Source: Patescibacteria group bacterium
Lineage (GTDB): Bacteria; Patescibacteriota; Microgenomatia; UBA10105; UBA927
DNA: 64,000 bases
Reading direction: 5' to 3'
Assembly: GCA_023379025.1 (NCBI GenBank)
Contig: JAMCTH010000003.1
Coordinates: forward strand, 103,362 to 167,361
Shown: in pieces, positions 322 through 16,189 of the stretch
How positions within the stretch are numbered: position 1 is the stretch's first letter
Layout: the number at the start of each line of letters is the position of its first letter
Notes under the pieces: model-generated
The model's input: the letters and a program-made list of their open reading frames with translations, nothing else
Database searches by the model: none
What the model was told of the DNA's origin: nothing
Made by a program: the position numbers and the translations under genes

Positions 322-1563
322 TTATTCTCTTTTTATGACTTTCAAACCCATATACGGCTGGAGTGCTTCCGGGATATTCACCGATCCGTCCGCGTTCTGG
401 TAGTTTTCGAGGATCGCAAGCGGCGTCCGTGACGTGGCAATGGCCGTACCGTTCAGCATGTGAAGATACCCGACCGCACCTCCCTTTCTACGGACGCGGA
501 TATTGAGATTTCTGGCCTGATAATCCGTACAATTGGACGTAGAAGTCACCTCTCCGTATTCGCCCCGGGTCGGCATCCAGGCCTCTATGTCAAACTTTCG
601 GGCAGCCATGGCGCCCAGATCTCCGGTGCACATCTCGAGCACCCGGTACGGGAGCCCTAACCCCTGGTAGATCTTTTCCTCCATGGAAAGGAGGAGTTGG
701 TGCATGTGCTCTGATTCTTCAGGAGCGCAGTAAACAAACATCTCCGCTTTCGTAAACTCATGGACACGGTAGAGACCTTTTGAGTATTTCCCGTAGGCGC
801 CTGCCTCCTGCCGGAAGCAGTGAGAGTACCCGATATACTTGAACGGGAGATTCCCCTCCGGGATCACTTCGTCTGCGTGTTTACCCGCAAGCGTTACCTC
901 AGCCGTTGCGATCAAGCCTAAATCTTCTCCTTCAAGGGTATATGTTTGTGCTTCATTGCCTCTCGGCATATAGCCGGTTCCCAGATAGTAGCGGGATTTG
1001 GCAACATCCGGGGTAATAACCGGCACAAACCCTTCCCGTGCGAGAAGATCGAAGGCATAGCGGACCAGAGCAAGCTCCATGAGCGCGCCTTCGCGGTATA
1101 AAAAGTAAAACTGCGAACCGGCGACCTTGGCACCGGTGTCAAAATCAAGGATTCCGAGCGCCTTCCCGAGTTCAAGGTGGTCCTTGGGGGTAAAATCAAA
1201 TTTCCTGGGTGTCCCCCATTTGCGGACTTCAACGTTTTCCTTTTCGTTTTTCCCGACCGGTGCATCCTTGGAAGGAAGATTCGGAATCTGCGCGATGGTC
1301 CGACCAAGTTCTTCTTCCGTCTTGGCAAGTTCCGGTTCCCTGGCTTTGATCGCTTCCTTGACGGCTTTTCCTTCGGCAGAAACTTTACCTGCTTTGGCGA
1401 TTTCGTTCCGTTTGGCGCGGAGTTCCTCAAGTTCGCCAATCAGTTTTCGCCGTTTGGCATCAAGCGCCAGGACATCGTCTACAGTGTCCGGGTCAAAACC
1501 TTTGGCGGCAATGCCCTTTTTCACCTCATTCGGATTCTCTCTGACAAGTTTGATATCGATCAT
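322..1563 (-). CDS. serS: Seryl-tRNA synthetase
   Basis: 413 aa. N-terminal coiled-coil tRNA-binding arm (MIDIKLVRENP...), then a class II aaRS core with motifs such as GYSHCFRQEAG and GTAIATSRT. Confidence 0.93.
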   Translation of the reverse strand: MIDIKLVRENPNEVKKGIAAKGFDPDTVDDVLALDAKRRKLIGELEELRAKRNEIAKAGKVSAEGKAVKEAIKAREPELAKTEEELGRTIAQIPNLPSKDAPVGKNEKENVEVRKWGTPRKFDFTPKDHLELGKALGILDFDTGAKVAGSQFYFLYREGALMELALVRYAFDLLAREGFVPVITPDVAKSRYYLGTGYMPRGNEAQTYTLEGEDLGLIATAEVTLAGKHADEVIPEGNLPFKYIGYSHCFRQEAGAYGKYSKGLYRVHEFTKAEMFVYCAPEESEHMHQLLLSMEEKIYQGLGLPYRVLEMCTGDLGAMAARKFDIEAWMPTRGEYGEVTSTSNCTDYQARNLNIRVRRKGGAVGYLHMLNGTAIATSRTPLAILENYQNADGSVNIPEALQPYMGLKVIKRE

Positions 1564-1575
1564 GTTACCTCCATT

Positions 1576-2214
1576 TTAGCAAAAATCCCTCGGCGATTCC
1601 TTAGCCAGTGCAGCCCGTATAAATGGCTTAAGTTCTTCCAGTGCCTTTTTCCTGTGGTTGATCGATTCATTTTCTTCCGGCGTCAGATCGTCATGATTAT
1701 AAAACTTGTTAAACCGGGGAAGATACAAGAGGGAACGGTACGGATACCCAGCGATCCTGGCAGCAGAGGGCGTAAGAGGAATGATGCCGCAAACCGAGGC
1801 TTCGGCCGTATGCATCTTCCCGCCGGGAGTCGAAAAGGCGATGACAACGCGAAGCTTTGCCCCGCGATTTTGGAGCGGGACGCCCTTAAGCCTTTCCATT
1901 GTATACGCGATGAGTTCTTCGTCCTCATCTTCGCGGTCGCCGTGTATCCACCGGTGCGATTTCACCCCGGGCTCTCCCCCCAGTGCGTCTATCTCAAATC
2001 CGCCGTCATCTGCGATGGTTGGCAGTCCTGATTTGTCCGCATAGAATTTTGCTTTAAGCACTGCGTTTTCCTCAAATGTTTTCCCCGTTTCCTCCGGTCT
2101 GTCGATAATGTTTTTATCATCCAAACTCATAAGTTCTATGGGCATATCAGATAAAAACTCTTTAATTTCTGCCAATTTCCCGGGGTTAGTTGTAGCTATA
2201 AGAAGCTGTTTCAT
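1576..2214 (-). CDS. rdgB: Non-canonical purine NTP pyrophosphatase (RdgB/Ham1 family)
   Basis: 212 aa. N-terminal ATTNPGKLAEI signature of the Ham1/ITPase family. 12 nt downstream of serS on the same strand. Confidence 0.8.
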   Translation of the reverse strand: MKQLLIATTNPGKLAEIKEFLSDMPIELMSLDDKNIIDRPEETGKTFEENAVLKAKFYADKSGLPTIADDGGFEIDALGGEPGVKSHRWIHGDREDEDEELIAYTMERLKGVPLQNRGAKLRVVIAFSTPGGKMHTAEASVCGIIPLTPSAARIAGYPYRSLLYLPRFNKFYNHDDLTPEENESINHRKKALEELKPFIRAALAKESPRDFC

Positions 2215-2226
2215 ATTCAGTTTTCG

Positions 2227-2544
2227 TCATTCTGGCAATCCGCCGGCTGGCGGAGTGTCCAGAATCGAGTTATATAAGTCTCTCAGTAATGGGTTATGCT
2301 TTCGGATTAATCCTAACTTTTCACTTCTCTTCATATCCTTAATTTGTTTTTCCCTTATGATAGCATTTCGAATATCGTCAAACACTTCGTAATAGACGAG
2401 CGCGTGTAGACCGTATCTTGCAGTAAAGCCAAATGGGTCAGAATTACGTTTGTGTTGATAAACTCGTTTCACTAGGTTGCTTGTTACTCCTGTATAGAGT
2501 GTTGGACGAGTGTTTGCCATGATATAAACATATCCGGTTTTCAT
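2227..2544 (-). CDS. Stand-alone GIY-YIG nuclease domain protein
   Basis: 105 aa. GYVYIM...LYTGVTSNLVKRVYQHK is the GIY-YIG core seen in UvrC N-terminal-like and small endonucleases. Confidence 0.75.
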   Translation of the reverse strand: MKTGYVYIMANTRPTLYTGVTSNLVKRVYQHKRNSDPFGFTARYGLHALVYYEVFDDIRNAIIREKQIKDMKRSEKLGLIRKHNPLLRDLYNSILDTPPAGGLPE

Positions 2545-2587
2545 ACGGATTCTGGGTGCGCTCGGGGACTCGCTTACCAGAATGACG

Positions 2588-3169
2588 CTACAACCCCAGT
2601 TCCTCGTGGTGAACTTGCATCGAAGAAAGTGTTATTTGTATAAATTCATCAACCGGTATCCCAAGTTTTTCTTCGCATTGTGCTATCTGTTCCCGGGCAA
2701 CCGCGGCTGCAAATGCCTTTTGTTTCCATTTCTTTTGAACTGATTCAACAGTCACAAGATCGAGTTTCTTTTCCGGCCGGACCAAGGCAACGGCGACTAT
2801 AAACCCGGTAAGCTCATCCACCGTTTCAAGCGCCCATTCCATAGCTCCCTCAAGCTCTGCGAGGTGCGTTCTTTTTCCGTTATGGGATTTAAGCGCATGA
2901 ACGATCGGGCCCTCCGTTTCTCCGAGTTCATGAAGCCATGAAAGCGTATGCTTCGTGTGCTCGTCAGGACTGTCTTTCGTTTCTTCCCAATCCGCGTCAT
3001 GGAGTAAGCCGAGAATCTCCCACTGATCCGGGTCGCCACCGAGCTTCTCCGCAAGGGCGCGCATGGCAAACCCTACCGCGTACATATGACGCCGGAGGTT
3101 CTGGTTTTGGGTGTGGGCATGAAGAAGATCAAGTGCCTGATTTCTGGTGATCATAAGCTCATGTGACAA
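2588..3169 (-). CDS. HD-domain phosphohydrolase
   Basis: 193 aa. H...HD motif (LLHDADWEE) and conserved His residues typical of the HD superfamily. Confidence 0.7.
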   Translation of the reverse strand: MSHELMITRNQALDLLHAHTQNQNLRRHMYAVGFAMRALAEKLGGDPDQWEILGLLHDADWEETKDSPDEHTKHTLSWLHELGETEGPIVHALKSHNGKRTHLAELEGAMEWALETVDELTGFIVAVALVRPEKKLDLVTVESVQKKWKQKAFAAAVAREQIAQCEEKLGIPVDEFIQITLSSMQVHHEELGL

Positions 3170-5477
3170 CTCCTGTGAAATCGAGTGTTCCGCCGCAATA
3201 CCGGAGGATGTTCTGTACTGACTCGTTCAGAGAATGTTCGACCATATCCGGTGCAATATCCAATATCCCGTCCACGTTAATCCAGATATCCTTCGTATCT
3301 TCCGTCACCATGGTGCGCTTCGCATCGCGGTAATTAAAGTCAATATTATACCCGCCGACCCGGTCGTAATACGCGAGTTCCGTGGCCTTATATGCGGTAG
3401 GTTCCGTATCCCCAAGCAACAGTATTTCGTCACCCGCCCCGGCGTACCGGAGTACGGCCGGAAATTGCACCATATCCGCATTAAAGGCTCCGATAGATAC
3501 TCTATGACTCATGACAACCAGATTATATGCATCGACACAGGTATTTACGGTGTACAGTCCCTTTCCGAGCGCGACACGACGGAGAAGCGCTTCCGGTGAA
3601 GGCCGTCGGGAATGCCAGTCTATCCCCATATCCCGGTAGAGCTTCCGGTAGCTGATAATTTCCGGATACTTACCCAGTTCCTCTGTCGTCAACCCGGCAA
3701 GGCCGTTCAGGAATTTCTTTTTCTCTTCCTCAAGCCCGCGGTCCGAGGGAGCAATGCGGACTCCCCGAATCAGGGCGATACCGATGGAGACCGTCGGATA
3801 CCGCTCCTTCACCTTCGGATCTATGACAAAATAGTCCGGCTTGTGTATACCGTGAACGTTCTTTTCCCGAACGGTTACCTGAATTTTCGGGGCAAGTGTT
3901 AACCGTCCTATAACGGCGTCTTTCGGAAATTTCCTGAGAAGCCACCCGGCGCGCGGACCGTATGGTTTATCAAGTACTGAACAATAGAGCGCTTCAAAGG
4001 CAAGCTTTGGATCGAGATGCATCTCCTTTACCAGACGGAAGAGCTCTGACTGAAGTTTCTCCGGATCCTCTGCATATTTCCAGACTACTGCTAACTTCCG
4101 TAAGAAATCCCACTGTATGTCGGAAAGAGACAGATTCTCGTACGGCTTCACCGAAAGCTGGTATTTGTAATCATCCGGCGCGAACCTGGACACCCATACT
4201 CTCGCATACGTTTCCCGCTCGCCAAGGCATCGCACTTCTGCTTCGGTCAACCGTAATCCCTTAACGCACTCAAATTTCTGAAGCAAGTCGACGTTCGGCA
4301 ACTGTATGTAGTTGGCTATATCACGAAATCGGGGCAAAAACATCTCCGGATTTTTTGCGGGGGGTTCATGTATCTGAGACAGGAGAAATGCCCTCGATAA
4401 ATTTTCGTCGCCGTCCGTATGGTATGCCGTCCAGCAACGGTCGTATTCGTCAAATAAATCCGGTATTGCCATGGTCCCCGTCGGATCGATCTCTATAGCC
4501 TGCCGGTAATCCGTCCTCGTAAACAAAAACTTTCCGACTGGCGCGGGAAGGACCTTTGTAAGATCCCTTGCCTTAAGCCCCAACCCTTTTGATGAAGACA
4601 TTTTCTTGCCGCCGATGAGGAAAAATTCATACGGAAGATTATATGGCTCCGGTATATGAAAAACCTCGCGGCAGAGCTCCCGTGCTATATCCCGAGATCC
4701 GCCGGCAGATGAATGATCTTTTCCTGCTCCTTCGATCGTGACCCCCATCACTTTCCAATGTGCCGGCCAATCCACTTTCCACGGCAGTTTTCCCGGGTGA
4801 TGCTTCGGATCACCGGAGTCTGTAAAAGGACTGGTTTTCCCGTTATATCCGCATCCTTTTGCCCATGACACCATATCCGGTTCGCAGGTATAGGAAACGG
4901 TTGTACCGTCCCACCCGTGCACCCGCGTTGTGCCGAGTCTGCCGCAGTTTTCGCATACCACCTGAAGCGGGAGCCAACCTTTTTCCCGTTTTTTACTGCC
5001 ACTAACACGCTGATAAATATCCTGAATGAGGTCAGCATGATCGAGTGCTTCGCGAATCACGACATCGAATTTTCCCGCATGATACATATCCCAGGACGAA
5101 AGGAATGTTGCGGAGACCCCAAGCGATGTCAGCACCTTCTTAAAATCATTGGTGAAATACTCTGCAAATGTTGTTTCAGCATTATCCGGCGCACGCGCCA
5201 GCCGGAGCGGTTTGCCGAGTTCACTGGAAAGAGACATGAGTTCCGGGGGCAATCCGTCAACAGGATCGAAATCATTAAGAACAAAGGTAAATGTCACGTC
5301 GACTCCCCTGTCCAGGAGCGCCCGGTAGACAATGTCATGTACAAGCGGTCCCCGGAGTGACCCAATATGCGCAAAGCCGGACGGCGTAAACATATCATCC
5401 ACGTGATATGGCACAAATTTCCCTGTCTCAACGATTTTTTGTGCTACAGCATCTGCCCAAAACATATATACCCCCAT
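3159..5477 (-). CDS. lysK: Class I lysyl-tRNA synthetase fused to a C-terminal B3/B4-like tRNA-binding/editing domain
   Basis: 772 aa. HIGH-type motif FAHIGSLRG, a Zn-finger-like CENCGRL...C cluster and KMSKS motif KMSSSKG give an archaeal-type LysRS-I core of about 520 aa. About 230 extra C-terminal residues (YTVNTCVDAYNLVVMSHRVSIGAFNADMV...DFNYRDAKRTMV) resemble the PheT B3/B4 domain. Confidence 0.85.
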   Translation of the reverse strand: MGVYMFWADAVAQKIVETGKFVPYHVDDMFTPSGFAHIGSLRGPLVHDIVYRALLDRGVDVTFTFVLNDFDPVDGLPPELMSLSSELGKPLRLARAPDNAETTFAEYFTNDFKKVLTSLGVSATFLSSWDMYHAGKFDVVIREALDHADLIQDIYQRVSGSKKREKGWLPLQVVCENCGRLGTTRVHGWDGTTVSYTCEPDMVSWAKGCGYNGKTSPFTDSGDPKHHPGKLPWKVDWPAHWKVMGVTIEGAGKDHSSAGGSRDIARELCREVFHIPEPYNLPYEFFLIGGKKMSSSKGLGLKARDLTKVLPAPVGKFLFTRTDYRQAIEIDPTGTMAIPDLFDEYDRCWTAYHTDGDENLSRAFLLSQIHEPPAKNPEMFLPRFRDIANYIQLPNVDLLQKFECVKGLRLTEAEVRCLGERETYARVWVSRFAPDDYKYQLSVKPYENLSLSDIQWDFLRKLAVVWKYAEDPEKLQSELFRLVKEMHLDPKLAFEALYCSVLDKPYGPRAGWLLRKFPKDAVIGRLTLAPKIQVTVREKNVHGIHKPDYFVIDPKVKERYPTVSIGIALIRGVRIAPSDRGLEEEKKKFLNGLAGLTTEELGKYPEIISYRKLYRDMGIDWHSRRPSPEALLRRVALGKGLYTVNTCVDAYNLVVMSHRVSIGAFNADMVQFPAVLRYAGAGDEILLLGDTEPTAYKATELAYYDRVGGYNIDFNYRDAKRTMVTEDTKDIWINVDGILDIAPDMVEHSLNESVQNILRYCGGTLDFTGVVT

Positions 5478-5536
5478 TGTACCATCTGATGATCTGAACG
5501 ATCAGCATGTCTCTGCGATCGTACGCATCCAATATA

Positions 5537-5563
5537 CCAAAAACCCCGCACTCGGCGGGGGTC
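5537..5563 (-). terminator. Rho-independent terminator downstream of greA
   Basis: The minus strand reads GACCCCCGCCGAGTGCGGGGTTTTTGG: a GC-rich hairpin plus a U-run about 20 nt after the greA stop. Confidence 0.6.
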
Positions 5564-5582
5564 TTTGGAGCTTGCGTATTTT

Positions 5583-6050
5583 TTATTCTATATCGACGAT
5601 TTTGTAGACGAGCTTACCCGCCGGTGCCTCTACCTCAACGGTATCGCCCGGTTTTTTACCGAGGAGTGCCTTCCCGAGCGGCGACTCATGGGATATTTTC
5701 TTCTGTGTCGGATCTGCTTCCCATTCACCGACAACGGAAAACACTTCTTTTTTATTCCCGACATGGAGCGTCACCCTGCAACCGACATTTACCGTTTTGT
5801 TATGCCCGTTGTTGGACACGACTTTTGCCGCCCTGATGATCTCCTCAAGTTCCGCAATCCTGCCGTCGATAAACGCAAGATCCTGTTTTGCTGCGGCGTA
5901 CTCGCTGTTTTCGGACAAATCACCGAGATCCCTCGCATCGGACAGCCGTTTTACGACATCCGGGCGCTTCGTATCCACCAGCTCCTTATATTCAGCTTTA
6001 AGTTCCTCCAGGCCTTCTTTCGTCAGGACCTGTCTTTTGGTTTGATCCAT
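5583..6050 (-). CDS. greA: Transcription elongation factor GreA
   Basis: 155 aa. N-terminal coiled coil (LTKEGLEELKAEYKEL...DLSENSEYAAAK) and a C-terminal FKBP-like domain. Confidence 0.92.
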   Translation of the reverse strand: MDQTKRQVLTKEGLEELKAEYKELVDTKRPDVVKRLSDARDLGDLSENSEYAAAKQDLAFIDGRIAELEEIIRAAKVVSNNGHNKTVNVGCRVTLHVGNKKEVFSVVGEWEADPTQKKISHESPLGKALLGKKPGDTVEVEAPAGKLVYKIVDIE

Positions 6051-6347: not shown

Positions 6348-6421
6348 GGCGCGTTCGTCTAGTGGCCCAGGACGGCTGGTTCTCAACCAGCAAATCATGG
6401 GTTCGAATCCCATACGCGCTA
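6348..6421 (+). tRNA. tRNA-Glu (anticodon CUC)
   Basis: 74 nt cloverleaf. Acceptor GGCGCGU/ACGCGCU (G1-U72), D-arm UCGUCUAGUGGCCCAGGAC (the tRNA-Glu signature), anticodon stem GCUGG/CCAGC with loop UUCUCAA giving CUC, T-arm AUGGGUUCGAAUCCCAU, discriminator A. No encoded CCA. Confidence 0.85.
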
Positions 6422-6507
6422 CAATTTATTTCACTCAGTACAGATCGTCGGTTCGTTTACTCCGAAAGCGAAGGTATTGGGAGAATCCGACTGTGGGTAC
6501 CAATTTA

Positions 6508-8801: not shown

Positions 8802-11800
8802 TTAACTGCTTTCTACAACTGCTATTTCTTCCGTCGTTAGGCCGTAGAGTTTATAAACCAATTGGTCAATTTGCTTTTCGTATTCGATAACCTGTGATTG
8901 CTTAATGGAGTTTCGTAGATAATCCCTGTCTGTGGTAATGACTAGGATTTTATTGACCATACTGACAATCTTTTCTATGTTTATTTTATTTGTATTCTTA
9001 ATTGGGAAAAGTTCAATTTTATATTTTTTCCAACGGCTTGTGCCCATACCCGAACTTGTTGATATTTGCTCAAAATACCAGAGCCCAAGTTTTGAGTTTA
9101 AAATTCCTAGTAAATACTTAAGATTGTCACCCACCATAGCAAAGAGAGTCGCTTCGGCAATAAACCCTTTGTCATCATAAGTAAATTTTGGTTTATCAGA
9201 TAACTCTCCCCAAATAATTTTTGGTTTCTCAAATTCTTCAAAATAAACACAATTTCTAAGATTAGTCCAATGTGAGCCCTTATTGTGTCTAATTTCTAAT
9301 TTATCCCTGTACTGCGCTAAATGTTTATAAATTGCAGGGTAATTTTTCGCCACATCAATTCTTGGAAGCTTGCCTTTTATTCCGTTATGGCTATTTATTA
9401 GCCAGAGGTCTTGCCATTCATAATAATATTTTCCGACATCACGACCCCTCAACATTGGCTTAATTATTTCTGCACTTTTTGGGTCTACTTTAGTCAGTTT
9501 GTTTTTTGTCTCGGTGCTAATTACGAAAGCATCATTATAACCATTTAGAATACCTATATAAATTCGCTGGTTTAGTTGCTTTAGTGGGGTAGAATCTTTT
9601 TCTAGCTTTGCTCTAAGTGAAGCTGTTTCTAAATTGCTTATTATCCATCCGTTGTCATCAAGATTATCAAGAGTCACATAGTTATTGCTGAAATAACTAC
9701 TAATATCTACGTACCGGTTCGAGGTTAAATTAAAACTAAGTGCTCTAAGTTTATTTTGGAATACACTTTTTTCGAGGACAATTACATTACTCTCTACAAT
9801 AGCTGTATCGAATACTTGAGAATTCTCGAAATCAATTAGGATTAAAGGGTTGGTGTTTTCTTTAAAGTATTTTCTCAATAACGCACCATACTTTGTTTTC
9901 ATCCATGAGTTCGAACTGATATAAGAAAGTGTCCCCATATTTTTTAAAAGATTTACCCCTTTTTCATAAAACACACAATAAACGTCCGAAGATTTCGAAT
10001 AAGTCTTAAAATCCAACTTTGATAACTCTTGACTTACTTTTTTATTCTTTTGTAACTGAAAATAGGGTGGGTTAGCTATGACTACATCAAAACCACCGTT
10101 CTTTTCAAACACTTCGCTAAAATTAAGTTTCCAAAGGAAAAATGGCTTGATGTTTGCTTTTTTGAAGCGCTCGATTTCCGGCAAGAGAGATAATTTTTTC
10201 TGCTCCTTAACAGATGCCTCAATCAAATCCCAAGTTAAGTTTTCAATTTCTCTCTTGATTTCGTCTTTCTCAGTTTTGTGCGCAGTCTTAAAGAATTGAG
10301 CTTTGAGTTCTTGTAGTTGCTTGGTAATTCTCTCTGCCTCTGAGATAAGATCAAAGAAGTGTTGTTGTTCTAATTTTGCTTCGGACTCAAAAAGCTTAAT
10401 ACCCTCGTATTCCTCGAGTAAGCTATTGCCCTGCATAATTTTATAATCAAGGTTTGGCAGGGGTTTAATTTGCTTGATATCCTGCTCATCAACAATTAAA
10501 GAAAGCCACAAACGAAGTTTGGCTATTTCCACAGCTCCGGGGTCTATATCTACCCCGTACAGGCAGTTTTGAATGGCGTGGCGCTTGAAGTCATAGATAC
10601 TGCGGCCGTTATCCGATAGGTAATTGGTGAGGATGTTGCGAACTCTAATTACTTCGGTCATCATGCCGACCAAAAAGGCACCGGACCCAACCGCAGGATC
10701 GCAAACATGGATTTTTTCTAATTTTTCATCAAGAAGGTGTGCGTTGTCGCGAATACTTTGTGGAAGTCTAAAGTGATAGTCTTTTGTTTCCCGACCTTCA
10801 TTTATAACCCGTGCTTCGTGCTCAATGGCTGTTTCCCCTAAGCGGATGAGGGTTTCGATATCATCCCGTCTAACTTTGCCGTCTAATTCTGTGAGTAGAT
10901 AGTTAATTAAACTTTCCTGACACATATAGTGGACAATCTCACGCGGGGTGTAGTAAGTGCCTTTGGATTTGCGGTCTTTAACTTCCAAAAGGTTCTCAAA
11001 AACCTTTCCCAGCATCTCCGGATCAACGGCCACCTCACGCTCAAGCGGCTCATCTTCCTTAACCGTGAAGTTGTAGCGGTCAAAAACATCTAAAATCCCG
11101 TCTCCGGTGTCGCCCTCTTTGGTTTTCCTATTATTCGAAAAAAGCTCATCGGGTAAGCGAATATCGGTGTGCACCCAGTCATAGTTTCCAAGGGGATCAA
11201 AAAGTCCTCCGTTTAAGAAGGGAATTTTGCAGTTAAATTTGCTATAAAAATCATCTGTACGCTCAACGGCTAAGGCTTCGTAAAAAAGAGGTTCCAGGGT
11301 GTCGTTGAAGAAATTATCGTAAGGAGCTATCGTTTTTTCAAAAAGCCGGCGTAAAAAGTCTTTTGGACCCGTACCCCAAACGGCATCTCTGGCAACCCCA
11401 AACCAGCCCTTTTTTTGTAAAAAGTAAAGGAAAACAATCTGACCAAGAAGCTTTTTAGCAAAGTCGGTGGTGTCGATATTTTTCTCTTGGAAGTCAGATT
11501 TTATCTTGGCGTCTTTGGCAACCATCGCGTCGAGCGCCTCTTTGGTATCCAAAAACAGCTTTTTATACTTTTCAAAGAAGTCTTTGGTAACAACCTCAAC
11601 GCTGAAAGCTGACTCAAGATCACTAAGAGCGGGTTTAAAGTCCGTGTCTTTGAGAATTGGCAGAAGTTGTCTTTGAGCGGTGTGAGTGTTTTCGTTGGCG
11701 CCAACTAAAAAAGAAAAACGGCGAGCCGGGGTAAGCTCGGTTATGGCCTTTATCTTTCCGGCTTTTGACTCTCCCAAGTGATAATCCATCTTTACTAAGG

Positions 11801-12200
11801 AGAGCCGCCAATCGTCAGAGTCTTTGGTATAAAAAGCCACAAGCGCGGCGTCTTTGGCGATACCGCCTCGACTGCCGTTTAAGTACCAAGCAATAAAGTT
11901 TCTTTGCATGGTACGCGCCCGCTCTAAAGCGCTTTGTTTATTTAAACAAACTGCTAAGACTTCAATTTTATGGCCGTCAACGTCCTCATACTTACCCAGA
12001 CGTTCAAGCGTTTTTATATGTGAGTCGTAGGCGTCGGGTATGAGATTGCCTCGATAGATAAAAGTATCGGTATCTAGGAAGTGAAAGAGGTTTTTGGCAA
12101 AGATTAAAAAACGCTCCCTATCGAAGGGATTTTCAAAAGTGCTCTTAATCAGATTTAATGCCCACGTTTCATTCATGGATGTCTTCCTCCAATAACTCAA
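8802..12200 (-). CDS. Large gamma-class N6-adenine DNA methyltransferase, Eco57I / type IIG / PglX / DrmMI-like
   Basis: 1132 aa. Motif X-like GTYYTPREIVHYM, SAM-binding motif I VCDPAVGSGAFL and catalytic motif IV DVVIANPPY. About 400 aa N-terminal region and about 400 aa C-terminal putative target-recognition region, an architecture shared by type IIG/IIL enzymes and BREX/DISARM methylases. Confidence 0.85.
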   Translation of the reverse strand: MSYWRKTSMNETWALNLIKSTFENPFDRERFLIFAKNLFHFLDTDTFIYRGNLIPDAYDSHIKTLERLGKYEDVDGHKIEVLAVCLNKQSALERARTMQRNFIAWYLNGSRGGIAKDAALVAFYTKDSDDWRLSLVKMDYHLGESKAGKIKAITELTPARRFSFLVGANENTHTAQRQLLPILKDTDFKPALSDLESAFSVEVVTKDFFEKYKKLFLDTKEALDAMVAKDAKIKSDFQEKNIDTTDFAKKLLGQIVFLYFLQKKGWFGVARDAVWGTGPKDFLRRLFEKTIAPYDNFFNDTLEPLFYEALAVERTDDFYSKFNCKIPFLNGGLFDPLGNYDWVHTDIRLPDELFSNNRKTKEGDTGDGILDVFDRYNFTVKEDEPLEREVAVDPEMLGKVFENLLEVKDRKSKGTYYTPREIVHYMCQESLINYLLTELDGKVRRDDIETLIRLGETAIEHEARVINEGRETKDYHFRLPQSIRDNAHLLDEKLEKIHVCDPAVGSGAFLVGMMTEVIRVRNILTNYLSDNGRSIYDFKRHAIQNCLYGVDIDPGAVEIAKLRLWLSLIVDEQDIKQIKPLPNLDYKIMQGNSLLEEYEGIKLFESEAKLEQQHFFDLISEAERITKQLQELKAQFFKTAHKTEKDEIKREIENLTWDLIEASVKEQKKLSLLPEIERFKKANIKPFFLWKLNFSEVFEKNGGFDVVIANPPYFQLQKNKKVSQELSKLDFKTYSKSSDVYCVFYEKGVNLLKNMGTLSYISSNSWMKTKYGALLRKYFKENTNPLILIDFENSQVFDTAIVESNVIVLEKSVFQNKLRALSFNLTSNRYVDISSYFSNNYVTLDNLDDNGWIISNLETASLRAKLEKDSTPLKQLNQRIYIGILNGYNDAFVISTETKNKLTKVDPKSAEIIKPMLRGRDVGKYYYEWQDLWLINSHNGIKGKLPRIDVAKNYPAIYKHLAQYRDKLEIRHNKGSHWTNLRNCVYFEEFEKPKIIWGELSDKPKFTYDDKGFIAEATLFAMVGDNLKYLLGILNSKLGLWYFEQISTSSGMGTSRWKKYKIELFPIKNTNKINIEKIVSMVNKILVITTDRDYLRNSIKQSQVIEYEKQIDQLVYKLYGLTTEEIAVVESS

Positions 12201-13005
12201 TGCGCGTAGCGCGCATCAACGACCTCATTTGATCGATCGCTACCTGATTAAGTGAAGCTAACCGTTTATTTTGCGGCAGCCCCTCTTTTATTAAAAGAGC
12301 ATTCAATGATTCCAAATTTGTCAGACAAACAAGTTGCGCGGCAGTTGCATAATCACGAATATTTCCCGGTTTATGTGGATTGGTATCCCGCCACTCGGTA
12401 GCGGTTATGCCGAATAAAGCTTTGTTGAGCACGTCTGCTTCGCTGGCATAGATAAAATTTATTTGCTGTTGAGAGAGTACCGGAGGGATCAAATGAGCTT
12501 TTACAGCGTCTGTGTGTATTCTGTAATTGATTGCCGCTAAATTCCGTTTCAAATCCCAACCCAATTTTTTCTGCTCGATTTCTTCTTCCTTAAGTCTCTG
12601 AAATTCTTTAATGAGATAGATTTTAAATTCGGGGCTAATCCACATGCCAAATTCAAAAGCGATGTCTTTGTGAGCGTATGTGCCGCCATATCTTCCCGCC
12701 CTTGCTTTCAACCCGATAGCATTTGTTTTTCGAACCCAATCTTTGACGCTGATTTTGTAACTGTTTAGACCAGCCTGGCTTCTAATTATGGCGAATTCGC
12801 CATAATTAAACTGAGGATTATTAATCCGCTCCCAAATGCCCAAAAAATCAACGGTGTTCCTGTTTCTGAGCCAATCTGAAATGAAAAAGTCCCCGTCTTT
12901 GGCTTTAAGCATATCAGTGAGTGAAATATAGTCGCCCTCTTTTGTTTGGAATAAGGTTATTTGTCTGCCCTTGACCGTTAATTGTTTTGAACTAGATTTT
13001 TTCAT
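12169..13005 (-). CDS. KilA-N domain protein
   Basis: About 279 aa from MKKSSSKQ. Central YGGTYAHKDIAFEFGMWISPEFKIYLIKEF matches the KilA-N/APSES-type DNA-binding signature (GTWVHP.LA..FA.WLSP.F). The start lies 13 nt after the helicase stop and the stop overlaps the methyltransferase start. Confidence 0.65.
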   Translation of the reverse strand: MKKSSSKQLTVKGRQITLFQTKEGDYISLTDMLKAKDGDFFISDWLRNRNTVDFLGIWERINNPQFNYGEFAIIRSQAGLNSYKISVKDWVRKTNAIGLKARAGRYGGTYAHKDIAFEFGMWISPEFKIYLIKEFQRLKEEEIEQKKLGWDLKRNLAAINYRIHTDAVKAHLIPPVLSQQQINFIYASEADVLNKALFGITATEWRDTNPHKPGNIRDYATAAQLVCLTNLESLNALLIKEGLPQNKRLASLNQVAIDQMRSLMRATRIELLEEDIHE

Positions 13006-16000
13006 ATAAATATTCGGATAAAATGACTTCTCTTGGTCCGGCAACTTGTGCCGAACTTTCAGCCAATGTTTCTTTGAAAAACTCGCTTGGAATACCAAGT
13101 TTCAAAAGCGACAGCAATTTAAGCGGATTTTTATCTTTCTTGTATAGCTCGTCAAGATTTTTGATTAGTCTTTTGGTTGTGGACTTAGGCAAGGCGCCTT
13201 CTTCCAGACGAGCCATAACATTACGAAGGTAGAGCTCATCTTCTTCGGTATAGCCCTTGAAGTCTTTGACTTCCCGGGCCTTGAGAATGTTAAGAAGCTG
13301 GGCGCTGGTGTCACGGCCTCGTTTACCCTTAACTTCTTGGGCTTCTTCGGTTGTGGCCAAAACAAACGCCTGTTTATTTTTCGAAAGCAGTTTATAAAAA
13401 TCTTCTCCTACCGGTTCCCGTCCGGCTTCTTTGGCAACTTCCAGTTTTTGCGCGGCTGAAATAAAGTCAAGCTCCATCGAATCACCACTGGCAACAGCGA
13501 AGAATTTTTGCAGTTTGCCTTTTCTGAAATAAGTAAGTAAAGAATTGGTTTTATCGTCATCCTTATCAATTCTTGCGGTGCGGGCTTTTTTAGGCAGTCT
13601 TTTGATTTTTTCAAATAAGTCCGGGTTAGTATCCCTAATATCGCGAATGATTGAGAGGTATTTAAGATCGCTTTCTTCTTCCTCGTCCTCACCGGTAATA
13701 ACTTCTTTGGAAGTTAAGCGAATCCAAAGGTCGTGCGACTTAATTTCCTCGCCTTCGGTGAGAAGCCTGGCGTCTGCCCCAAGAAGTTCTATAAAAGCTT
13801 CGATTTTAGCTTCGGCCGCCTCTTTGAGTTTAATTTGGTCGTTTGACTGTTTAGTAGGGAAGAAATTAAACGTATATATTTTGTCAAAGGGAGTATCAAC
13901 GCGGTTAATGCGGCCTGTTCTTTGCATTAAACGGGTAGGATTCCAGGGAATGTCATAATTGATAACCACGTTGGACTGGTGAAGGTTGACGCCTTCTGAA
14001 AGTACCTCGGTGGTGACTAGAATCCGGTAATCGTCTTTGGGGAATCGGGCTCCCGCGTCAAAGTTCTCAATCACTTTCTCGCGCACGCTGGCTCCGGAGC
14101 TTCCATGAAACGAGAGCACTTGTTCGGGGAATTTAGTACTTAGGTTTTTCTCAAGGTATTGGGCGGTTTCTTTAGATTCGGTAAAAATAATAAGTTTACT
14201 CTCACCCAAAATTTTACGAGATAAGAGGATGTCTATAAATTTGGCCAGTTTAGGGTCCCCACTGACACGGCGCCAAAGCTTGGTGATATCTCTTAAAATG
14301 GCCAGGTCGTTTTCGAGATCAACTTTGAAAGAGTCTTCAAAGTCTTCTGATTTATAACGCTGGGCCATATCTTCATCTACCAGCCTTTGTATCGCGGCTT
14401 CGTCGTCCTGCTCCAAAAGCTCGAAGATTTTATTGATATGCTTTTTACTGACATAAACATTGCCTTTTTCAAACTCATCTAAAAACCGCTCGTATGAAGC
14501 GATAAACCTATCAAGCGTATTTCTGAACGCAAAGAAGCTACTTTCCAAGCGTTTAACCAAAAGGATTTTCATAAACTTACCCATGTTCTTCTGACCTTGT
14601 TTGTCTGCTTGAGATACGTCGCCTTTGTAGTAGGTAAGGGGCATGTAACGGGCGTATTTGAATTTTTGTGTTATAGACTCGATAGTTGTGGTAAAAATCG
14701 CATCTTCTTCTTTATCGAGCTGGTATAAAATCGGCTCCGGATCTGCGACATCGGGAAATTTGAGGTTTTGCTTTTCCAGGTCTTTACTAAAATAATTGAT
14801 AATTTCACTGCGGGTACGCCTAACCATCAGATATTTAAGGACTTTTTCTCTTATTTCCTTGGCATTATCACGAACGGTGTCGAGATACTCGGCGCGGTTT
14901 CGCTGACGGTCCAAGCCCTTAAGTCTTTTTTCCAGACTTGAGAAGAAGATTTCCAAGTTGGGAAGGTTAGGAATGGTACTTTTCTTGGGTTTTTGAAATA
15001 GCTTGATTTGGCTCAAGATATCTTTCGGCGAATTGTTATAAGGGGTAGCCGTAACTAAAATTACCCTTTTACCACGAGTAATCTGCGCTAGCTTCTCATA
15101 AGTAATGTTATCCTCGGTTCTGAAGCGGTGAGCCTCATCTACAAACACATTGCTGTATTTATCCGTGCCTCTTTCAATTAACTTTTCCAGCTTTCCCAGA
15201 GATTCAAAGTCGGCGGAGACTTTAAAGTCGGAAAAAACATTCGGCCAAGAGCCCGGATTGTTCTCATCCAAAAGAACCGGCGGCGCTATGACCAAGTTTC
15301 TGCCGTCGAGCTGGTTGGCCAGCATAGCGGCAATATAGGTTTTACCCAAACCCACAACGTCGGAGATGAAAACACCGCCGTATTCATCTAGGATTTTTTT
15401 AGCGTTGAGAACTGCTTGCTCCTGATATTCAAGTTTTTTGAATTTAACGGGGGTGTACTTGTAAAAAACGTCTCCGGTTTGACTGATCTGATCTTTGAAA
15501 TACTCATAAAGGAATTTGAGGTAAAGCTCATAGGGGGTGATGGTGTTATTCAGCCAAGTTTTGTTATTGACCGTTTCGATGTATTTTTCGGAGACATCAA
15601 CGGCGTCTTTCCAAAGCTGGTTAAACTTATCTTGGGCAAATCGGTAATCGGACGCAGTTTTAAGCTCAACATTAAATTCAAGATTATCAACCAAGCCTTT
15701 TTGCGAGAAATTGCTTGAGCCGGTGATAACACGGCCAATGTCTCGGTCTCCTTCTTTGAAAGTGATGATATAGAGCTTGGCATGGATGTTGGCGGTAGGA
15801 TAGGCCCTTATTTCCAGCTTTCCGCTTTTTATCCATTCGATAAACCTAGTTACACCCTGTTCTATGCTCTCGGCGTCCTCGGATTCTTCCAGCTCGGAGG
15901 CAATGAGAGTTGAAAATTCCTCTTTGGCTTCGGCATGCGAGAAGGTGAGCGATAGTTGTTCTTCTGCGGCCTTGATATTCTCAAGCGTTTCGCGTCCGGT

Positions 16001-16189
16001 GCCGATTCCTATTAAAATGCGGATTTTCTCGGTTTTCTCAAGAACCGGATAGAGCTTGTAAAACCCGCTGGTATAAAAATAGCCGACTAAACTATCGAAA
16101 AAACGAGCGTCTTTAATTAAAACCCTGAAGCGGTTTAAAAGGCTTATTTCTTTTTCGTTTGTTATAAACGTTAGGTCTGAAACTTGCAT
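12992..16189 (-). CDS. PLD-family nuclease domain fused to SNF2-family (SF2) helicase
   Basis: 1065 aa. N-terminal HxK PLD motif HAKLYIITF...GSSNFS. Then Walker A GLGKTYIAA, DEAH box VFVDEAHRFR, motif III VTATPYNNS and motif VI QRTGRINR. About 300 aa helical C-terminal tail of unknown function. Confidence 0.85.
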   Translation of the reverse strand: MQVSDLTFITNEKEISLLNRFRVLIKDARFFDSLVGYFYTSGFYKLYPVLEKTEKIRILIGIGTGRETLENIKAAEEQLSLTFSHAEAKEEFSTLIASELEESEDAESIEQGVTRFIEWIKSGKLEIRAYPTANIHAKLYIITFKEGDRDIGRVITGSSNFSQKGLVDNLEFNVELKTASDYRFAQDKFNQLWKDAVDVSEKYIETVNNKTWLNNTITPYELYLKFLYEYFKDQISQTGDVFYKYTPVKFKKLEYQEQAVLNAKKILDEYGGVFISDVVGLGKTYIAAMLANQLDGRNLVIAPPVLLDENNPGSWPNVFSDFKVSADFESLGKLEKLIERGTDKYSNVFVDEAHRFRTEDNITYEKLAQITRGKRVILVTATPYNNSPKDILSQIKLFQKPKKSTIPNLPNLEIFFSSLEKRLKGLDRQRNRAEYLDTVRDNAKEIREKVLKYLMVRRTRSEIINYFSKDLEKQNLKFPDVADPEPILYQLDKEEDAIFTTTIESITQKFKYARYMPLTYYKGDVSQADKQGQKNMGKFMKILLVKRLESSFFAFRNTLDRFIASYERFLDEFEKGNVYVSKKHINKIFELLEQDDEAAIQRLVDEDMAQRYKSEDFEDSFKVDLENDLAILRDITKLWRRVSGDPKLAKFIDILLSRKILGESKLIIFTESKETAQYLEKNLSTKFPEQVLSFHGSSGASVREKVIENFDAGARFPKDDYRILVTTEVLSEGVNLHQSNVVINYDIPWNPTRLMQRTGRINRVDTPFDKIYTFNFFPTKQSNDQIKLKEAAEAKIEAFIELLGADARLLTEGEEIKSHDLWIRLTSKEVITGEDEEEESDLKYLSIIRDIRDTNPDLFEKIKRLPKKARTARIDKDDDKTNSLLTYFRKGKLQKFFAVASGDSMELDFISAAQKLEVAKEAGREPVGEDFYKLLSKNKQAFVLATTEEAQEVKGKRGRDTSAQLLNILKAREVKDFKGYTEEDELYLRNVMARLEEGALPKSTTKRLIKNLDELYKKDKNPLKLLSLLKLGIPSEFFKETLAESSAQVAGPREVILSEYLYEKI

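Follow-up and report, generated by a model that had tools for sequence, protein, structure and literature searches.

Post-transfer editing domains are listed in reviews for LeuRS, IleRS, ValRS, ThrRS, PheRS, AlaRS and ProRS only, and lysyl-tRNA synthetase (LysRS) is credited there with pre-transfer editing alone, namely the cyclisation of homocysteine, homoserine and ornithine by the class II enzyme (PMC7373986, PMC11415595). The example of ProXp-ST1/2 indicates that mischarging of tRNA(Lys) requires correction in some bacteria (PMC7373986, PMC11415595). Canonical class I LysRS (LysRS-I; TIGR00467; 1IRX) consists of a full-length body with HIGS, KMSSS and a zinc cluster, and stops near residue 520-530 without an editing domain. 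Among described deacylases, the closest to the system reported here is CtdA, a canavanyl-tRNA(Arg) deacylase that is a free-standing B3/4 protein and a dimer (PDB 9f7e, 9mkl; PMC10018355, PMC12449066). We analysed a 64,000-nucleotide stretch of contig JAMCTH010000003.1 (the window) from a Microgenomatia (Patescibacteria) bacterium. In it, a single gene on the minus strand encodes a class I LysRS that likewise has the full-length body, but extends to residue 772 and ends in a CtdA-like B3/4 module. The module recurs in fusion with or next to both LysRS-I and class II LysRS (LysRS-II), and the fusion hints at a so far undescribed step of lysine proofreading during translation.

An earlier reading of the window made from its letters alone (the sequence-only reading) held that LysRS-I has no known editing domain and that the fusion seemed undescribed. 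The reviews cited above agree with the first statement. For the second, no account of a LysRS or ArgRS fusion to B3/4 was found in the full-text literature searched, although subscription journals were outside its coverage and an earlier mention is possible. Published CtdA studies mention neither LysRS nor any fusion, and the 2025 CtdA phylogeny was limited to sequences of 180-260 amino acids (PMC12449066), a filter that would have removed the fusions. A 2026 Nat Chem paper on deacylase mining was considered and found to be unrelated to the B3/4 CtdA-like family. The name 'lysine--tRNA ligase' is given to the fusion proteins in NCBI and UniRef; the architecture is thus visible in databases but apparently undiscussed.

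Class I LysRS body and appended module

The open reading frame (ORF) noted previously at 3159-5477 exists as one minus-strand ORF of 772 codons counted from the first ATG, and residue numbers below follow this count. Translation probably starts at M5, the second ATG (5465), because the homologue consensus opens with MFWAD, the corresponding NCBI protein (P0001) has 768 residues, and a Shine-Dalgarno-like GGGGG run lies 5 nucleotides 5' of this ATG. The gene and its parts are as follows.

3159..5465, minus strand: lysK-B3/4 fusion gene, 768 residues from M5 plus stop; P0001 is 100% identical over 768 residues
3900..5465, minus strand: class I LysRS body (Rossmann catalytic domain, zinc cluster, helical anticodon-binding domain), residues 5-526; PF01921, TIGR00467, Foldseek 1irx
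5358..5369, minus strand: HIGS (HIGH-type signature), residues 37-40
4590..4604, minus strand: KMSSS (KMSKS-type signature), residues 292-296
3834..3899, minus strand: interdomain linker, residues 527-548; weakly conserved, predicted flexible
3162..3833, minus strand: CtdA-like B3/4 module, putative aminoacyl-tRNA deacylase, residues 549-772; pocket N652, G663, F665, N711, D718, N734

The LysRS body is complete, as the sequence-only reading had proposed for the first 520 or so residues. TIGR00467 (lysS_arch, NCBIfam) spans residues 5-526 end to end, covering model positions 1-511 of 515 with 307.6 bits (cut-off 147.55), and PF01921 (class I LysRS, Pfam) matches residues 6-359 (E 2.9e-78). A Foldseek comparison with the Pyrococcus horikoshii enzyme 1IRX (1irx_A) gave E 5.7e-37 and a template modelling score normalised to the target, TM(target), of 0.74. 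The signatures and the four-cysteine zinc cluster quoted earlier are all present. Across 60 orthologues (53-71% identity) H37 is nearly invariant and G39 and S40 are invariant in HIGS; K292, M293 and S296 of KMSSS and Cys175, Cys178, Cys198 and Cys209 of the zinc cluster are invariant as well.

The C-terminal extension, from which the peptides YTVNTCVDAYNLVVMSHRVSIGAFNADMV (residues 642-670) and YYDRVGGYNIDFNYRDAKRTMV (residues 703-724) had been quoted and are indeed found, had been described as a B3/B4 domain resembling the editing domain of PheT. The B3/4 part of this description holds. PF03483 (B3_4, Pfam) matches residues 610-761 with E 8.2e-19 and 68.3 bits (gathering score 29.3), far beyond chance; the isolated C-terminus scores 71.7 bits over profile positions 2-173 of 174. 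The AlphaFold2 (AF2) model of residues 526-772 is confident (predicted local distance difference test, pLDDT, 94.4) and has the B3/B4 alpha/beta fold. CtdA, however, is a closer relative than PheT. With the full-length model, Foldseek placed CtdA (9mkl, 9f7e) ahead of PheRS-beta at TM(target) 0.77-0.78, and the best sequence match of the module in PDB is also CtdA (E 2.3e-4, versus E 0.62 for Escherichia coli PheT). The helical insert described as peculiar to CtdA (PMC12449066) is present, and the alignment spans the whole CtdA protein of about 230 residues. Because CtdA tops both the fold and the sequence matches, the appended unit is, as judged by alignment and predicted structure, a complete CtdA-type protein and not a PheT fragment. 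PheT proper was rejected as an identity for the module, TIGR00472 (pheT) matching at E 0.17 only and the PheRS editing residues being mostly not shared.

PheRS-specific helices, through which B3/B4 docks onto B1/B5 and the alpha subunit, are absent from the module, which has the CtdA-type insert instead. Among the PheRS-beta editing residues R244, N254, Y255, H265, F267, G318 and E334 (E. coli numbering), just N254 (N652) and F267 (F665) are shared; R244, Y255, H265 and G318 correspond to Y642, L653, G663 and D718. The attachment differs from that in PheRS as well: a flexible linker joins the module to the C-terminus of a monomeric class I LysRS. This linker of about 20 residues has a mean column identity of 0.307, against 0.74-0.76 in the flanking domains, and is modelled poorly by AF2 (pLDDT below 50 at residues 532-538).

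A joining of LysRS with a separate downstream B3/4 gene by misassembly, frameshift or annotation was weighed as an explanation of the fusion, and we give it practically no credence. The window ORF is continuous, with no in-frame stop near residue 530, where the sequence-only reading had advised looking for one. The survey of related LysRS-I sequences that it had also advised found the same extension in each of the 120 non-redundant homologues listed, both Pfam domains lying on one chain. These proteins (52-100% identity, about 760-770 residues) come from many independent metagenomes of Gottesmanbacteria, Levybacteria and unclassified Patescibacteria. Two module motifs, run against a single genome of each GTDB species, gave 384 loci, and the counts that follow refer to the best 80 of these. 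In all 80, module and synthetase share a stop-to-stop ORF (LysRS-I in 75, LysRS-II in 5); the genomes are those of Microgenomatia (Gottesman-, Levy-, Roizman- and Daviesbacteria), though some labels of metagenome-assembled genomes (MAGs) among the scanned loci are generic or evidently wrong. Speaking for an artefact are the contigs of loci L002 and L003, in which LysRS and module are adjacent or overlapping separate ORFs and the module frame is open across the lysRS stop. Because the module frame stays open through that stop, these split forms may themselves be frameshifted. With a continuous ORF in the window and single ORFs in all listed homologues and loci, drawn from independent MAGs and studies, an artefactual origin is ruled out. 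Divergent proteins combining LysRS-I with B3/4 were found in Chloroflexota too (Anaerolineae, Aggregatilineales).

Pocket residues and conservation of the module

The aminoacyl pocket of CtdA is formed by N105, G116, E118, C166, Q173 and I189; the mutants N105A, G116H/W and Q173G are inactive, and C166 tunes specificity (PMC12449066). In the alignment these positions correspond to N652, G663, F665, N711, D718 and N734 of the window module. The Asn and the Gly of the site are retained, N652 being the counterpart of the essential N105 of CtdA and of N254 of PheRS-beta, and G663 the counterpart of the size-critical G116. The CtdA specificity residues E118, C166, Q173 and I189 are replaced by F665, N711, D718 and N734, so canavanine specificity is not expected; a canavanine-specific CtdA was accordingly rejected, 4 of the 6 pocket residues differing. 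A CtdA-2 subclade of Chloroflexi, Bacillota and archaeal proteins is described as retaining N105 and G116 with C166 absent or different (PMC12449066). Compared by residue pattern, the module would be compatible with this subclade, having the N and the G and, in place of C166, N.

All six pocket positions are invariant across the 60 orthologues. Given 37 invariant columns among the 224 of the module, the hypergeometric probability of this is 1.4e-5. Mean column identity is 0.756 in the module (0.827 in its core), 0.744 in the catalytic domain and 0.561 in the anticodon-binding domain; the module is thus conserved at least as well as the catalytic domain and better than the anticodon-binding domain. 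In comparisons with cluster representatives (50% identity level), identity stays at 56-58% in the module and at 37-46% in the LysRS body. The module and its pocket are under strong purifying selection, and an invariant pocket within a highly conserved domain has the signature predicted for a functional small-molecule site.

Module architectures and gene order

An exhaustive phmmer search with the module against 1.84 billion cluster representatives returned 1759 matches at E<=1e-3. Architectures were taken from the top 150, and five kinds bear on the module.

LysRS-I with C-terminal module: 23 of the top 150
LysRS-II with C-terminal module: 12 of the top 150, TIGR00499 above cut-off
LysRS-II with N-terminal module: 2 of the top 150 (P0206, P0195)
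ArgRS with N-terminal module: 6 of the top 150, TIGR00456
Free-standing module of 200-260 residues: about 74 of the top 150

Pocket signatures differ between groups. Written over the six pocket positions, characterised CtdA reads NGECQI and the ArgRS-fused modules read NGECEV, which is CtdA-like. The clade of the window protein has NGFNDN in common, whether its module is on LysRS-I, on LysRS-II or free, and other C-terminal LysRS fusions have NGFTD[FVY], NAYCD[FLI] or NGYCDL. In each module fused C-terminally to LysRS in the top 150, an aromatic residue takes the place of E118 and Asp that of Q173.

The six proteins in which a CtdA-like module precedes ArgRS (P0186, P0202, P0209, P0213, P0219, P0238) have the canavanine-type pocket NGECEV and look like cis-editing enzymes against canavanine; P0219 has two B3/4 modules in tandem. 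A search with the ArgRS-fused module returned free-standing proteins only. Two further combinations involve DUF2000 (PF09391), which we take to be a member of the peptidyl-tRNA hydrolase II-like superfamily: P0136 (906 residues) is LysRS-II-B3/4-DUF2000 and P0362 (373 residues) is B3/4-DUF2000. If our assumption is right, these proteins have a second domain of aminoacyl- or peptidyl-tRNA hydrolase type.

The gene order greA, lysRS with module, an optional HD gene, rdgB/Ham1 and serS is conserved over the best 80 loci, and the window shows the same order (322-6050). In five GTDB species (L024, L030, L032, L059, L070) this slot holds LysRS-II with the module. Loci L030 and L032 show greA followed by the LysRS-II fusion and HD, and L024 shows the LysRS-II fusion followed by HD, Ham1 and SerRS. 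The five LysRS-II-fused modules share 70-74% identity with their LysRS-I-fused neighbours and fall at two separate places within the LysRS-I-fused clade of a neighbour-joining tree. The LysRS-II fusions resemble the window protein only from its residues 520-541 or so onwards, that is, from the linker. Judged from these comparisons, the non-homologous catalytic body has been swapped in situ between class I and class II, with the module and the neighbouring genes retained. Retention of the module through a body swap links its function to lysine or tRNA(Lys) rather than to one synthetase architecture. The exchange in front of a retained module is also an unusually clean natural case of non-orthologous displacement within one gene.

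Modules of the same clade also occur free-standing, in L001, L084 and L085, with 53-56% identity and the same pocket. Each adjoins a divergently transcribed gene of about 220 residues with a weak ACT-like match, and the copies of this neighbour in L001 and L085 share 80% identity. At L085 (4008-4589, plus strand) a gene for a LysO lysine exporter (PF03956, E 2.4e-60) lies directly 3' of the free-standing module. In L002 the lysK and B3/4 genes lie behind asd, an aminotransferase gene and lysA.

Candidate function and surrounding genes

Whether the extension might add tRNA affinity or proofreading had been left undecided in the sequence-only reading; the invariant pocket and the pattern of fusions favour proofreading. 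On balance we lean towards the reading that the gene product is this bacterium's housekeeping class I LysRS, predicted to lysylate tRNA(Lys), and that its flexibly tethered CtdA-type deacylase would perform post-transfer editing of mischarged tRNA(Lys). We infer both the catalytic activity of the module and its substrate. In the proposed mechanism, the synthetase would esterify tRNA(Lys) and the module pocket would then sample the aminoacylated CCA end. A near-cognate, non-lysine residue fitting the pocket would be hydrolysed by a water molecule positioned by Asn652, and Lys-tRNA(Lys) would be kept out. The two LysRS classes approach the acceptor stem from opposite sides. Because the module occurs on both of them, free-standing, and on a variable linker, the loose tether probably allows the acceptor end to be re-sampled in cis or in trans, with no fixed channel for CCA translocation. 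The edited amino acid is a matter of guesswork. Since the pocket is polar and acidic (N, D and N plus an aromatic residue), ornithine, thialysine or another polar or cationic analogue or precursor of lysine is proposed, and Ser and Thr are candidates because trans-acting factors clear both Ser-tRNA(Lys) and Thr-tRNA(Lys) in other bacteria.

Several observations weigh against tRNA(Lys) editing. Identity of the module to characterised CtdA is just 16-18% or so, and with four of six pocket residues changed the substrate cannot be read from the pocket. The combination of aromatic residue and Asp is also frequent in the free-standing relatives (74 of the top 150) and is not exclusive to LysRS fusions, and the N-terminal LysRS-II fusions P0206 and P0195 have a CtdA-type pocket (NGECEV and NGDCEV), which blurs any simple mapping of pocket to tRNA. 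The interdomain geometry of the AF2 model is unreliable (predicted TM-score 0.67, disordered linker), members of the clade are known from sequences and predicted structures alone, and the LysRS complement of the genome is viewed from 64 kb only. Class I LysRS is also reportedly relatively selective against some lysine analogues.

The module could instead be a non-catalytic tRNA-binding appendage, comparable to EMAPII or tRNA_bind domains, that raises the affinity of LysRS for tRNA(Lys) or the efficiency of activation. Binding of the tRNA acceptor end is a property of B3/4 domains, the sequence-only reading had offered this role, activation of lysine by class I LysRS depends on tRNA (PMC7373986), and catalysis in this clade is predicted from sequence. 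We nevertheless consider it unlikely, as a small-molecule pocket including the catalytic Asn would be superfluous for a mere RNA-binding surface and yet is invariant beyond what chance would give. Free-standing modules with the same pocket exist, and the module is also found on class II LysRS, whose activation step needs no tRNA. In P0147, with the architecture LysRS-II-tRNA_bind-B3/4-HD, a separate tRNA_bind domain stands beside the module, which argues against a mere tRNA-anchoring role for the module. It is improbable, in our estimate, that the module is a true deacylase with a target unrelated to LysRS, such as canavanyl-tRNA(Arg) or the substrates of general trans-editing, and that fusion, in a small genome, does no more than couple its expression to that of a housekeeping gene. 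This would fit with CtdA as the closest characterised relative, with a flexible linker that would permit action in trans, and with free-standing deacylases that often edit the products of unrelated synthetases (PMC11415595). Set against it are the exchange of E118, C166, Q173 and I189 for F, N, D and N, while ArgRS-fused modules retain the CtdA pocket, and ties to LysRS of two unrelated folds that survive the class I/II swap and are hard to explain without a link to lysine or tRNA(Lys).

We hold it to be very improbable that the module and an HD partner serve LysRS chemistry in a way other than proofreading, through regulated hydrolysis of Lys-tRNA(Lys) or the handling of lysyl-adenylate or diadenosine tetraphosphate (Ap4A). 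The HD gene is found immediately 3' of the fusion gene in 23 of the 80 loci, often overlapping its stop, and is fused in frame in 2 (L077, L078), so that 25 loci show the pairing, in LysRS-I and LysRS-II contexts alike; an HD domain is also fused to the module in P0064 and P0147. A profile of the 23 HD orthologues matches YqeK-type symmetrical Ap4A hydrolases (8jja, E 2.8e-3), and 4 of the 23 match TIGR00488. However, this link is weak, at about 20 bits and confined to the HD motif region, 55 of the 80 loci have no HD gene beside the fusion, and every B3/4 or CtdA domain characterised so far is a hydrolase that edits aminoacyl-tRNA. A connection of the HD gene with Ap4A made by LysRS is speculative.

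If editing of tRNA(Lys) by the tethered module is correct, LysRS would be the eighth synthetase with a dedicated editing-type domain, and this would be the first on a class I LysRS. ProRS INS/ProXp/YbaK, AlaRS/AlaX and ThrRS N2/ThrRS-ed likewise use one deacylase fold both fused to the synthetase and as a trans-acting single domain; the present case differs from them in its B3/4 fold, in the involvement of LysRS, and in a module common to two non-homologous synthetase classes. Lineages thought to scavenge amino acids and not to make them would then meet a lysine-like antimetabolite that needs hydrolytic proofreading, and retention of the module across body swaps would mark it as important. We see the chances as evenly balanced that in Microgenomatia and some Chloroflexota LysRS acquired the module as a CtdA-like deacylase with specificity for a mischarged tRNA(Lys), which would give the large, uncharacterised branch of free-standing B3/4 'CtdA-like' proteins a function in LysRS error editing and, with the ArgRS fusions, define a family editing basic amino acids. 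The role of divergent non-canavanine CtdA-like proteins, an open question of the 2025 CtdA study, becomes directly testable, the pattern of fusions and neighbourhoods pointing them toward tRNA(Lys). A tethered deacylase that appears portable between two unrelated synthetase scaffolds may also be of interest for engineering, in genetic-code expansion with lysine analogues.

Other features of the window are listed below.

2588..3154, minus strand: HD/HDIG-domain gene, about 190 residues; PF01966, TIGR00277; probable ATG at 3154, 4 nucleotides past the lysK stop
5544..5560, minus strand: terminator-like hairpin and T-run after greA, which sets greA apart from the lysK transcription unit
6348-6422, plus strand: tRNA-Glu(CTC), a short way 5' of greA and in the other orientation; the sole tRNA gene in the 64 kb
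2227-2544, minus strand: GIY-YIG nuclease gene, 105 residues, between the HD gene and rdgB
8802-16189, minus strand: two large adjacent genes, Eco57I/MmeI-like and PLD-nuclease/SNF2-type

The GIY-YIG gene is missing from the gap between HD and rdgB in most orthologous loci. The pair at 8802-16189 encodes an Eco57I/MmeI-like methyltransferase-endonuclease of 1132 residues with a TaqI_C specificity domain and a PLD-nuclease/SNF2-type helicase of 1065 residues, and is probably a restriction or defence module.

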